In this document: one piece after another, positions 1,836 through 5,458 of the stretch
Layout of the letters: each line of letters opens with the position of its first letter
How positions within the stretch are numbered: the stretch's first letter is position 1
From: a virus
Virus genome (UHGV): UHGV-0106859
DNA length: 17,837 nt
Reading direction: 5' to 3' (one strand)
Program-made: the position numbers and the translations under genes
Notes under the pieces: model-generated
The model's database searches: none
Seen by the model: the letters and a program-made list of their open reading frames with translations, nothing else
What the model was told of the DNA's origin: nothing

Positions 1836-2087
1836 ATGGCTAGAGACGATCCGCACTTTAACTTCCGTATGCCTATGGAAGTAAGGGAGAAATTAAAATT
1901 CAGGGCGGAGGCGAATGGGAGATCAATGAACTCCGAGTTGTTACAAATCGTCCAAGATGCTCTATCAAAACCATCGCCTGTGACTGGATATCGCGACGAT
2001 GCAGAACGACTCGCTGATGAGCAGTCAGAGCTTGTTAAGAAGATGGTGTTTGATACGCTGAAGGATTTGTACAAAAAACCCACCTGA
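1836..2087 (+). CDS. mnt: Mnt repressor (ribbon-helix-helix; P22 Mnt-type)
   Basis: 83-aa product MARDDPHFNFRMPMEVREKLKFRAEANGRSMNSELLQIVQDALSKP... is near-identical to P22 Mnt as I recall it; GGAG SD 7 nt upstream; orientation opposite to arc/ant as in P22 immI. Confidence 0.85.
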   Translation: MARDDPHFNFRMPMEVREKLKFRAEANGRSMNSELLQIVQDALSKPSPVTGYRDDAERLADEQSELVKKMVFDTLKDLYKKPT

Positions 2088-2098
2088 CGGTGGGTTAC
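2071..2098. terminator. Bidirectional hairpin terminator between convergent mnt and the accessory 355-aa gene
   Basis: CCCACC-tgac-GGTGGG (2079-2094) with an A-run upstream (T-run on the minus strand); the mnt stop codon lies in the loop; the minus-strand gene stop is at 2101. Confidence 0.5.
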
Positions 2099-2100
2099 TG

Positions 2101-3108
2101 TTACTTGTCTGAATCATCCAGTTCGTCTGTTTTCACATCCTCAAACCTTGGATGCAGGCGATTCATTTTTGCAATAAAATCTGAATAGTCGTTAGATAGC
2201 TTCATAATCGTAACGGTTGATGACAGATGCTCTCTTAATTTTTGATATCCAATATTTGGCGTCAGCCCCTGAAACAACTTTGTACCTTTTGAAGCCTTTA
2301 CGTTCTGCTTTTTAAGCTCCTCAAGGATGTTTGGTGCCAATCGCTTGTAGACGATATCATTTGTCAAAACGCCAAAATACTGAGGGCGGAAGCGGGGATT
2401 TTCCGGCGGGTATTCTAAGCCCCTTAACCTGAAAAGCTCTTCATAATAATCAGCCGGAAATGTTGTAATATAAGGTTGAATTTCCTTTGCGACAAAGGCC
2501 TCGAGTATTTTGGCGAGCGCATCTTTTTCTCTATCTCGCTGGTACCCCGTCGCTTCATCAACAAGCGCTATTATTCCGACTTTAGCTAATGAGCGCACCA
2601 GAATTTCAGCTTTCTTGGCTGTCTCTAACTGGTTTGGCCTGGTGATAGCGCCTGCCTCTCTTGCCTTTAAATAAACATCGCAAACAAGAGGTATTATGGA
2701 TGCGTCATAACCTTCTTGGACGGAGCCAGTAATCGTCTTGTATTTAACCTTATTGATCACATCCATAACATCTTGATTTATATATTTTTTAAGGTTTGCA
2801 GCATCCATAAAAGCGGGCATATTGATCGCCCCCTCTTCTTGAGGTGCTCTACCCCCTCTTTGTGGTCGGCCAAATGCTTTAAAAACAGAAGCTTGTGATA
2901 TGATACGCCGTCCATTTTCGAGAACCGCGACATCTAATTCCGCATCACCGATCTTTAACTTTCCCTCATTCGCAGATACGGGCAATAAAGCTTTTTCTTT
3001 TTTTGCGGCAACAGCCTTTCTTGAGGATTCTTTTCTTTGCTCTGCTGTCATTTTTGCCGCGCGTGCCTTACCGCCTTTGGCCTTCCCACTAACATCATCA
3101 TTTTTCAT
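2101..3108 (-). CDS. Accessory (moron) protein of unknown function, about 335 aa, with a lysine/arginine-rich N-terminal tail; possibly a P63C-type phage domain (unverified)
   Basis: Long minus-strand ORF (track 2101-3168, but that start is a TTG inside an operator-like palindrome; first plausible ATGs at 3114/3108 with weak SD). AT-richer than the flanking structural genes. Lies between gene 16 and mnt, the slot where P22 carries sieA. Confidence 0.65.
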   Translation of the reverse strand: MKNDDVSGKAKGGKARAAKMTAEQRKESSRKAVAAKKEKALLPVSANEGKLKIGDAELDVAVLENGRRIISQASVFKAFGRPQRGGRAPQEEGAINMPAFMDAANLKKYINQDVMDVINKVKYKTITGSVQEGYDASIIPLVCDVYLKAREAGAITRPNQLETAKKAEILVRSLAKVGIIALVDEATGYQRDREKDALAKILEAFVAKEIQPYITTFPADYYEELFRLRGLEYPPENPRFRPQYFGVLTNDIVYKRLAPNILEELKKQNVKASKGTKLFQGLTPNIGYQKLREHLSSTVTIMKLSNDYSDFIAKMNRLHPRFEDVKTDELDDSDK

Positions 3109-3148
3109 GAGCATATCTCGTGTTGTGATTGATAAGTCAATCATACAC

Positions 3149-3186
3149 ATGCACGTTGTAACGTGCAATATTTAAATATGCACGTA
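3149..3186. promoter_or_regulatory. Operator-like palindrome cluster upstream of the accessory gene
   Basis: Perfect 18-bp palindrome TGCACGTT-GT-AACGTGCA (3150-3167), perfect 12-bp palindrome ATATTTAAATAT (3168-3179), and a third TGCACGT half-site (3179-3185); possible minus-strand -35 TTGCAA at 3194-3189. Confidence 0.5.
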
Positions 3187-3267
3187 AATTGCAAATCAGA
3201 TAATGAGGAGACTTTCTCCCCCTTGCACTGACATCATGGTATTCTGCTCAAAACTAAGGAGGTTGGT

Positions 3268-3597
3268 GTGTTAGAAATAGTCGTACTCGCTCTTGGGATA
3301 TCCTGTTGCGTACTATATGCAGGGTTAGCTGCCCTCAAGAAACAGGTTAAGGAATTAGATCGCTCACATGAAATTGATACAAAAATTGCGCGATTAACAG
3401 AAGAGAATAAACACTTAAAAAATTCCATAAGGGCACTAACTGATGACAACTACAAACTGTCCCATGCATTGGCTAAGTGGGAAATAGTAAGTTATGAAAG
3501 AATGACCGACATGATTTTTTCGTCTTATATGGCTACAAAATCTCCTGAAACATCAGGAAAAGCAATAATTGCAGCCATTGAAAAGAGAATTAAATAG
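3268..3597 (+). CDS. Small membrane-anchored coiled-coil protein (109 aa), hypothetical; candidate superinfection-exclusion or accessory factor
   Basis: GTG start with a strong SD TAAGGAGG 5 nt upstream (3255-3262); N-terminal hydrophobic segment LEIVVLALGISCCVLYAGLAAL, then a charged helical region; AT-rich; convergent with gene 16 and divergent from the 355-aa gene. Confidence 0.7.
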   Translation: MLEIVVLALGISCCVLYAGLAALKKQVKELDRSHEIDTKIARLTEENKHLKNSIRALTDDNYKLSHALAKWEIVSYERMTDMIFSSYMATKSPETSGKAIIAAIEKRIK

Positions 3598-3616
3598 CCT
3601 TCCTTGGCGTTCATTT

Positions 3617-5458
3617 CTACTGCCTGGTAGCTTCGTTAGTTAGGAGAGGGCGAACGGCGTTAGCAGCCTGATTTAACGCTCGCTCATATGCCGGAGTTCC
3701 AGGCTTGACGTTTGCAAGGCGGAGAAGCATGTTTCTTGCTGCTTTAGACTCATACAAACGCATCATTGCACCAAAGCCAGCCTCAAGCCCCATTGATACG
3801 CCAAGAGTCGCAGTTGCGCCAATCGTCCTTATCCGGTTGGCTTGCGATTGCCCCGTCTGAGTTACTACATTTGCGGTGTCTGACCTTGCTGTTTGCTGTA
3901 GAACTTCATGAAGAGAATCAAGCTCTTTCATGTGCTTTCCAGAAAAAATAGTGTTGTAAATTTCACCGCCTGACTGAGATTTCAGCTTATTAACTTCAGT
4001 GATGAACTTGGCTGGAGAGTCACCGGCCTTTTCCGCTATTTTGCTGACATAAGCTGCACGCATAGCATCTTTCCCTTTATTATCCAATGCGCTCCAGATT
4101 CGTTTCACGTCAGATGGTTTTCTGCTTAATACAACGGTATTTATAAGTTCAGGACTGGCTTCACTGCTTGCCTTGTTGAGCTTGTTAGCAATGTTTTTAT
4201 TAAGCACCTTATTATAAACGTTTGCATAATCGGAATTTGCTTTAAGGTATTTTGCTGCGTCTGATGCACCGAGGTTTTTTGCAACTGCGTTACGAAGATC
4301 TTTTGACATTGCATTCTCTACCATATTGGTAGCTGCTTTTGCCTGGTTTGGGAAGACCATAGCATCTCCCTGAACATTAGATCTAAATGCTGTTCTGTGC
4401 TGACGCAAGAGATCAAACGTAACATCCAAATCAGTTGCAGGGTTTGCTAATTCTTCACGTAGGTTACGCAAGGATGTAAGCAGGCTTTGATTGGCAGACG
4501 TCCCAAGCCGTTCCTGTCTTGCGATCGCTGTATTCAGAGCATTCATGGTATTTGTGGTATCAACTGCGGCATTACCCATTTTATTGGTGACGTCATTGAT
4601 AACAGCGCTAGCGGCATCCTTCCGCCCCCTTAACGTGGTGGTAAGAGATTTCACCACATCATCAGGGTTGTACTCACCAAAACGGTCAAAATAATTACTT
4701 ACCAGCTTACTACGCGTTGCATATTGCTCCGCTCGCTTTGAGCCTGTCCCGAGCAAAGCCCCCTCGGCATCCTGAGTTAGGCCGCGAGTGAAAGCATTTT
4801 TCGGCGGGATAACATCAGATGTCATTGGTGTCACGCCCATCGATTCTGATGTGGCAATTTTCTTCGCCACTTCTGGCGCAATATCACCTTTTATAGCCGT
4901 TATTCCACGCCCTATTCCCTTTGCTGCTGCGGAAAGAACCCCCTGAGCGGCAAGGTTAACTCCGGCATTTTTAGCTGCATTTTGTGCGAAATCGCCTTTC
5001 TGATTTGCGGCCTCTGCCAGTGATCCAATAGCCATGCTTCCTGCCGTTCCAACTCCTGGAACTAAATACCCGCCAATTGTTTCTCCAGCTTGCGCATAAG
5101 GGTCTGTTGGTCGATCGACTGGACGATAGACATCGTCCAAAACCTTGGGGCCACCAAGCCCCTGGCTGATTGCATTAATCAGACTTGCGCCGCCCTGCAA
5201 TACGTCAAATGGTATGTTTACCAGACCACGACCAGCCTGTTCCGCAATTTGCCCTGCACTTTGACCACCAGTGGGCCAATCGCCAGCTTGTTGCATCAAT
5301 GATGGTTCTTCCCGTGTTGGTGCATTATTGGCCTGATTAACTGTTTGTTGCTGAACAGCCTGACCAGCAAAATACTCATCAATGGCGGTGCCAATATCTT
5401 CGGTGCTCGTACCATCAGGAAAGGTAAATGTCTTACCGTTTGCAGTTACTTTCATCAT
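3617..5458 (-). CDS. Ejection (DNA transfer) protein gp16-like
   Basis: 613 aa (P22 gp16 is about 609 aa as recalled); last gene of the ejection-protein trio; ATGA overlap with the upstream gene at 5455-5458. Confidence 0.85.

Follow-up and report, generated by a model that had tools for sequence, protein, structure and literature searches.

The locus considered here is part of UHGV-0106859, a P22-like prophage in which the minus strand encodes the late genes, and whose 17,837 nucleotides (nt) are termed the window below. Between gene 16 and mnt, at 2101-3600, are two divergently transcribed genes. One, on the minus strand and most likely at 2101-3108 (its longest open reading frame, ORF, covers 2101-3168 and has 355 codons from a TTG), encodes a protein with a P63C domain. 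The other, on the plus strand at 3268-3597, has a GTG start, encodes a phrog_8100 protein of 109 amino acids (aa) and is convergent on the ejection protein gene, gene 16 (3617-5458, minus strand; ‘DNA transfer protein’ in the annotation of the prophage of E. coli EC11). A divergent control region of 159 base pairs (bp; 3109-3267) separates the two. A preliminary description had placed two divergent ORFs between gene 16 and mnt, and they are there; it had also called the insert AT-rich, and while G+C is indeed lower in 2101-3600 than from 3617 to the window end (0.411 vs 0.50, with 0.37 for the 109-aa ORF), the degree is modest. It further took the genes for accessory cargo of the sieA/immI neighbourhood unlike any characterised family, and that reading stands. 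Where it saw one island, however, there are two independent single-gene morons, and their junction is a mosaic joint in the hypervariable ‘ant moron’, a published region described in 2008 with ten types among sixteen genomes (PMC2629481).

Are the two genes nonetheless working as one? The preliminary description proposed a single co-functioning exclusion or defence module, in which one component is membrane-bound and the other basic and cytoplasmic, and the common control region at 3109-3267 would suit it, as would the presence of a P63C-family gene of some type beside a sieA-slot gene in EC11, strain 755 and ETEC1720, and the retention, in the related cassette of phage 933W, of the small gene's upstream region up to its Shine-Dalgarno sequence. 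Distribution tells otherwise. Among 5,426 complete E. coli genomes the P63C cassette has matches in 257, and in a single one of these, EC11 (NZ_CM169490.1), is the 109-aa gene adjoining; the EC11 prophage is 99.9% identical to the window over 2000-3700 and has the same layout in its RefSeq annotation. The 109-aa gene is present in 17 genomes and its partner on the opposite strand, where inspected in four, was a gene for a 139-aa lipoprotein-like protein in two, a divergent P63C paralogue in one, and the P63C gene of the window in EC11. In SE1 its partner is an hkcC-like gene, in SI8 it is alone between gene 16 and the tailspike gene, and ETEC1720 has the same P63C cassette paired with an hkcB-type ORF. 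The P63C gene for its part stands by itself in unrelated phages as well as in chromosomal islands, and each gene has separate control signals. Presence that varies among otherwise syntenic phages, with the genes' own terminators seen and their promoters predicted, is the pattern by which morons are recognized. With independent distributions, different partners and a mosaic joint between them, a joint function for these two particular genes is very improbable.

What precedes the small gene is telling. Positions 3233-3270 (TCATGGTATTCTGCTCAAAACTAAGGAGGTTGGTGTG) match, at 36 of 38 bases, the stretch that ends at the GTG of P22 sieA, GTG included, with divergence beginning at codon 2, so the gene does occupy the sieA position, and in a more literal sense than had been said of it. 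This sieA-type initiation region (3234-3270, plus strand) has an extended -10-like TGGTATTCT at 3237-3245 and, at 3256-3263, the Shine-Dalgarno sequence AAGGAGGT, 4 nt before the GTG at 3268 and indeed strong, as initially noted. The stretch is also found in SI8, ST160/SE1 and ETEC1720, and in 933W up to 3257; in ETEC1720 it precedes a different ORF, of 107 aa, which is of the type known as hkcB in HK620 and CUS-3 and as gene 14 in epsilon34. Because the same upstream stretch, Shine-Dalgarno sequence and GTG precede all three genes, comparison of the sequences presents sieA, hkcB and the 109-aa gene as alternative cargos of one putative expression ‘socket’. The extended -10-like TGGTAT(T/C)CT lies within the shared stretch and is the only conserved promoter-like feature; no canonical -35 at the right spacing for the 109-aa gene was found.

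The 109-aa protein is a clear phrog_8100 member (1.4e-69). Its N-terminal membrane anchor and long helix, described at the outset as an anchor and a coiled coil, are borne out by hydropathy, with one hydrophobic segment at residues 1-24, and by an AlphaFold2 model (mean predicted local distance difference test score, pLDDT, 85) with one continuous helix at 2-90 and a short helix at 97-108. Since no positive residues precede the membrane segment and KK follows it, we infer a single-pass inner-membrane protein whose long helix and conserved C-terminal block would be cytoplasmic. That block, invariant in the family, is KWEI.SYE.MTDMIF.SY.AT.SPETSG. The family is tiny, with 14 protein clusters (Salmonella, E. 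coli and Klebsiella), and tblastn located the gene in 13 records of Salmonella P22-like phages, in ST160 and SE1 unannotated; it always abuts gene 16 and is convergent on it. Matches of the protein to DivIC and LmuB are below threshold and have coiled-coil composition behind them.

SieA of P22 is the obvious comparison. Its gene has the same slot between genes 16 and 9, likewise convergent on gene 16, and both products are small membrane proteins, though of 164 aa against 109 aa. SieA has three hydrophobic segments where the 109-aa protein has one, and blastp of the two gave E = 0.31, i.e., no similarity. SieA proteins, of types A, B and C, have a conserved motif, FxRYPxEAxxFNK (Leavitt et al. 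2024, PMC10883804), which is predicted to be cytoplasmic (PMC10883804), as the C-terminal block of the 109-aa protein would be; in P22 it is FGRYPGEANGFNKEF, and it is absent from the 109-aa protein. That the latter is a SieA homologue is ruled out by the E value, the single membrane segment and the missing motif. HkcB of HK620 and CUS-3, and its counterpart gp14 of epsilon34, is a second comparison. Encoded in the same slot behind the same start region, it has 107-109 aa and the same architecture, with a membrane segment at the N-terminus and then a long helix, and, as with the 109-aa protein, is linked to one type of gp16. With blastp, the 109-aa protein and HK620 HkcB are 33% identical over 67 aa (E = 6e-6) in the membrane and coiled-coil part, while hhalign gave a probability of 31% (E = 5e-4) over only 36 coiled-coil columns; the conserved C-terminal blocks differ, and homology is not demonstrable. 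A literature search for ‘hkcB’ brought up the epsilon34 genome paper only. The gp16 of the window is 73-82% identical to the gp16 of those Salmonella phages that have the 109-aa gene, whereas the HK620-like gp16 to which hkcB is linked aligns with it over residues 2-408 only (48%). The allele of the small gene thus tracks gp16 type, which could reflect function or mere linkage.

Turning to the larger gene, its product scores 84.2 bits with Pfam P63C (PF10546), for which the cut-off is 26.1, and matches phrog_2384 over the full length (3.9e-146, profile positions 2-337 of 338). Protein clusters with a match to it number more than 6,597. Both ORFs are real conserved genes, the smaller one by virtue of the clusters and phage records given above. 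Typical homologues have 320-345 aa and 50-60% identity over their whole length, in Pseudomonas, Azotobacter, Chromobacterium, Achromobacter, Gilliamella and Morganella; full-length phage relatives are encoded by Burkholderia, Gordonia (48%) and Streptococcus (47%) phages. Mx8 p63, the source of the name of the domain, matches the window protein over the P63C part only. Iyer, Koonin and Aravind are said to have defined the P63C domain, in 2002, among the shuffled domains of viral regulators. The contention that the cargo is undescribed has to be given up, as the P63C protein is 99.4% identical to L0095 of 933W, which was sequenced decades ago, both proteins have catalogued families (phrog_2384 and phrog_8100), and the ant moron itself has been published (PMC2629481). 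Nothing relevant was found in the literature on ‘L0095’.

The length of this protein had been put at approximately 335-355 aa, with a basic N-terminal tail. The Lys/Arg-rich stretch, GKAKGGKARAAKMTAEQRKESSRKAVAAKKEK, is there in the larger ORF and is conserved across the P63C family. As for length, the choice is between the TTG at 3168 (355 codons), the ATG at 3150 chosen by RefSeq (349 aa) and the ATG at 3108 (335 aa). The first two fall inside the predicted promoter, and because of this the ATG at 3108, giving 335 aa, is the most likely start and the other two are unlikely ones; the alignment to homologues, and to phrog_2384, begins only at about residue 21-23 of the long ORF. An AlphaFold2 model built on the RefSeq length of 349 aa, from ATG 3150 (mean pLDDT 77), has a basic helix at 23-54, an alpha/beta domain at 58-165 and an all-helical region at 172-332 that holds the Pfam P63C match. 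A sequence-profile search of the PDB had 0 matches at E <= 1, and Foldseek of the model against the PDB had nothing at E <= 0.001. With Foldseek against BFVD, a collection of predicted viral structures, the significant matches were family members, including Mx8 p63, and below them 16 of the top 50 were Bro, Bro-N or KilA proteins with weak E values. A weak PHROG match was to phrog_2899, the ‘anti-repressor Ant’ family, and comparison by hhalign of the P63C profile with Roi of 933W and with the Ant of the window was not significant; Roi is a poor probe, since it is not a Bro-N protein. The invariant ‘VDEATGYQ’ block was also considered as a family-wide catalytic site, a reading rejected because the E. 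coli 755 paralogue (28% identical) has AYALAGYR in its place.

The gene comes with its own signals. On its 3′ side is a stem-loop terminator at 2077-2096, of 8 pairs and with its T-run on the minus strand, that serves both strands and is common to the convergent mnt and P63C genes; analogous terminators follow the P63C-family gene in the Morganella, Pseudomonas, ST104 and SI8 cassettes, most copies having a 3′ stem-loop terminator of their own and some an upstream one too. On its 5′ side a sigma-70 promoter is predicted at 3140-3168 (minus strand), with -35 TTGCAC at 3168-3163, a 17-nt spacer and -10 TATGAT at 3145-3140. It was read from the sequence, the -35 matching at three of six positions, and the consensus scan did not list it. 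The P63C gene is an autonomous cassette of gene, terminator and predicted promoter. Over that promoter, at 3150-3185, are operator-like repeats with three TGCACGT half-sites, two of which make a perfect palindrome, TGCACGTT-GT-AACGTGCA, across the -35 and spacer; three of the four TGCACGT heptamers of the 17.8-kilobase window are in this short interval. The layout of ACGTGCA, approximately 10 AT-rich bases and then TTGCACGTT-NN-AACGTGCA is preserved in the cassettes of Morganella and of Chromobacterium, the proteins of which are 57-58% identical, and other subfamilies (strain 755, ST104, Achromobacter and Pseudomonas) have related TGCAAGC/GCTTGCA repeats. Nine cassettes together have 21 occurrences of TGCA[AC]G in the upstream 106 nt against 0.73 expected, the expectation being computed from the rest of each locus and the excess inflated, as some of those very sequences had supplied the motif; in four loci fetched after the motif had been defined, the count was 7 against 0.35 (P = 9e-8). 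Since the sole trans-acting factor common to the cassettes is their own product, autoregulation, with the P63C protein bound to the TGCA(C/A)G repeats that cover its promoter, would be the simplest reading.

The cassette is mobile, separately from the small gene. Over 1,204 nt, window 2054-3257 (minus strand) is 98.9% identical (blastn) to the L0095 cassette of the Shiga toxin (Stx) phage 933W, at 4001-5204 of the latter's locus, and both flanks are included, matching window 2054-2100 and 3217-3257. There the cassette occupies the nin region, with a methylase gene on one side and roi on the other, and has the orientation of the early-right operon, a different site from the ant moron of the window; relatives of 933W carry it too. 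One flank of the 933W copy has the last nine mnt codons and the shared terminator (CTGAAGGATTTGTACAAAAAA..CCACCTGA..GGTGGGTT), and the other the sequence upstream of the small gene, as far as the base that precedes the Shine-Dalgarno sequence. Because of these junctions, read base by base, the 933W copy most likely derives from a P22-like ant moron with the arrangement seen in the window. Elsewhere, one and the same Morganella protein, P0055, is encoded in two unrelated prophage backgrounds, one a siphovirus-type tail cluster in which the gene adjoins ant and arc homologues and the other a myovirus-type prophage in which it is between tape-measure and baseplate genes. In an Azotobacter prophage the P63C gene is beside an ant homologue in a siphovirus-type tail-gene cluster; a gene with a SocA_Panacea domain is also beside it (1609-2049 of locus L027), making a multi-gene accessory island in another phage background. 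In Pseudomonas it is in chromosomal islands near pyocin and PAAR genes. P63C-family genes are also directly 3′ of the prophage repressor gene and on its strand in ST104 (orf23; region 2160-2330 of L022), SI8 (region 2204-3840 of L023) and an Achromobacter prophage (region 3047-5023 of L026), the ST104 gene having its own upstream terminator and four TGCAAGC-type repeats. The slot downstream of the repressor is that of rexAB in lambda and of bstA in BTP1.

The minus-strand slot that mnt and the sieA socket enclose also varies in its cargo. In E. coli 755 exactly the slot of the window gene is filled by a P63C paralogue, 28% identical and of the same three-part architecture. In three other loci the place of the P63C gene is occupied by that for the 139-aa protein (2963-3382 in each of L015 and L016, and 2463-2882 in L021, where it is epsilon34 gene 15), which has a lipoprotein-type signal (LLSGC) and a weak PEGA-domain match (E = 0.0037).

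What might such a cassette do? BstA of prophage BTP1 invites comparison, as it is an abortive-infection protein with a KilA-N-like N-domain and its gene has a DNA self-immunity element at the 5′ end (Owen et al. 2021, PMC8585504). Like the P63C gene, bstA is a single-gene prophage moron with its own terminator, its product has approximately 300 aa, and both proteins have a two-domain layout with an N-terminal alpha/beta domain, of putative DNA-binding type in the P63C protein. At the 5′ end of each gene is a short DNA element, aba in the case of bstA and TGCA(C/A)G repeats in the case of the P63C cassette. The slot downstream of cI is shared by BstA and the P63C relatives of ST104, SI8 and Achromobacter, but not by the window copy. 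A pattern in the N-domain, ‘V.VL.DG.R.IS...V..A.GR’, aligns with the beginning of BstA's KilA-N-like domain; the profile comparison is not significant.

Overall, the best explanation of the locus, held with moderate confidence, is the mosaic joint of two independent single-gene morons in a P22-like ant moron, for each of which a role in defence or exclusion is plausible as a hypothesis. For the small gene, which sits in the sieA expression slot with the coding sequence swapped from codon 2, the product, probably made in the lysogen, would hinder gp16/gp20-dependent delivery of DNA by superinfecting P22-like phages as SieA does. We put this SieA-like role forward tentatively, at somewhat short of an even chance. 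The 109-aa protein could instead be a lysogenic conversion or envelope factor, a helper or antagonist of gp16, or a neutral passenger; the dissimilarity to SieA detailed above, the tiny family and the sub-threshold character of the DivIC and LmuB matches all suit such a non-exclusion role. Against it are the exact use of the sieA start region, the strict conservation of the C-terminal block, the unfailing position next to and convergent on gene 16, and the presence of the architecturally analogous HkcB in the same slot beside the other gp16 type, and we consider it rather unlikely. For the larger gene, the product would be a sequence-specific DNA-binding protein, with its basic helix, an alpha/beta domain resembling Bro-N/KilA-N in weak matches and the helical P63C domain, and by binding the repeats at its own promoter it would set its own level in the lysogen. 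That it is a self-repressing DNA-binding protein is probable. Beyond this, our preferred guess as to output is that of a prophage-expressed sensor or effector against incoming phage, acting in the manner of BstA; by analogy abortive infection is conceivable, though our confidence in it is low. An output in induction or lytic growth, with the protein acting as an antirepressor-like or developmental regulator akin to Ant, Roi or Bro-like proteins and not in defence, is less probable again. It would fit with the location of the cassette beside the immI genes (mnt, arc and ant) in the window and beside ant homologues in Morganella and Azotobacter, with the sense orientation of the 933W copy in the early operon next to roi, with the weak phrog_2899 match, and with the RefSeq label of Mx8 p63, ‘anti-repressor Ant’. 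However, no partner repressor is known, three unrelated prophages have the gene in the slot downstream of cI, and the gene's own predicted promoter, repeats and flanking terminators and its varying orientation to the operon are typical of prophage-expressed morons.

Several considerations tell against the defence and exclusion roles that we favour, or against steps leading to them. The -35 of the annotated P22 PsieA is not common to the window, which shares only the proximal 35 bp, so that lysogenic transcription of the 109-aa gene is a matter of inference. The co-variation of that gene with gp16 may be plain physical linkage, and the TGCA(C/A)G repeats could bind a host factor instead of the P63C protein. 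In 933W the cassette is in sense orientation inside the early-right operon, and a role in the lytic cycle is equally possible there. The comparison by hhalign of a 45-sequence P63C profile with a 44-sequence BstA profile gave E = 0.052 and a probability of 1%, and that with the single BstA sequence was also not significant. Checking against defence models, as the preliminary description had advised, gave the defence idea no help: with PADLOC-DB 2.0 nothing meaningful matched either window protein (best E = 0.0014-0.017 with 12-16 bits, non-collinear and composition-driven) or any of five P63C relatives, for which there was a single Cas6d match in one (E = 0.026, 12 bits), and the BstA model of PADLOC was matched neither by the P63C protein nor by those relatives. 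NCBIfam likewise had only sub-threshold noise.

The two proposals can be joined, with SieA, HkcB and the 109-aa protein as interchangeable, non-homologous blockers of injection matched to gp16 types, and the P63C protein as a BstA-like, self-regulated abortive-infection system in which a second role of the TGCA(C/A)G repeats would be that of a cis-acting self-immunity element. The conjunction is unlikely to be correct in full. Its components are nonetheless of interest. For short-tailed phages no injection blocker other than SieA has been characterised, and two in three P22-like phages are without it (PMC10883804). With their sieA start signals, the 109-aa gene and hkcB are two concrete candidates for the missing exclusion function, and the alleles of the socket allow the question of whether the specificity of exclusion follows gp16 type to be asked. 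The P63C family is very large and is present in Shiga-toxin phages, and its repeats and the recurrent slot downstream of cI are testable handles on possible DNA binding, autoregulation and abortive infection. As the evidence stands, the locus holds ordinary moron cargo at a hot spot already known, with both genes catalogued in uncharacterised families.

The surroundings merit brief mention. The gene next to the P63C cassette, at 1836-2087 on the plus strand, is a typical mnt (Pfam Arc 3.9e-30, Repressor_Mnt 7.2e-19). It is the second of two tandem genes of Arc/Mnt type, the first of which, at 1549-1812 on the plus strand, encodes 87 aa (Pfam Arc 3.4e-10, phrog_795) and lacks the Mnt C-terminal domain. 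A tandem ‘mnt’ pair is also present in CUS-3, while EC11 is without the 1549-1812 gene though from 1817 onward it is otherwise 99.9% identical to the window. Further along are an Arc-like gene at 1309-1449 and ant at 122-1045 (Pfam P22_AR_N and P22_AR_C), and on the other side, beyond gene 16, the remaining ejection and virion genes. In the divergent control region of the Arc-like and Mnt-like genes, at 1469-1510, two 21-bp direct repeats in tandem (GGTACGCATACATAGTATTTA / GGTACGCATTGATAGTCAATA) have the look of operators, but are not known to resemble those of P22 Arc or Mnt. In P22, arc abuts ant at the corresponding place, with the sar antisense RNA. The window has there, at 1109-1312 on the minus strand, a 67-aa Cys-rich ORF of phrog_7150 with a zinc-ribbon-like CCFC...CSDC and zero matches in Pfam or NCBIfam. 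Finally, at 3541-3560 on the minus strand, inside the coding sequence of the 109-aa gene and 57 nt past the gene 16 stop codon, is a terminator-like hairpin with a T-run, which, being on the late-gene strand, could attenuate late transcription toward the tailspike gene.

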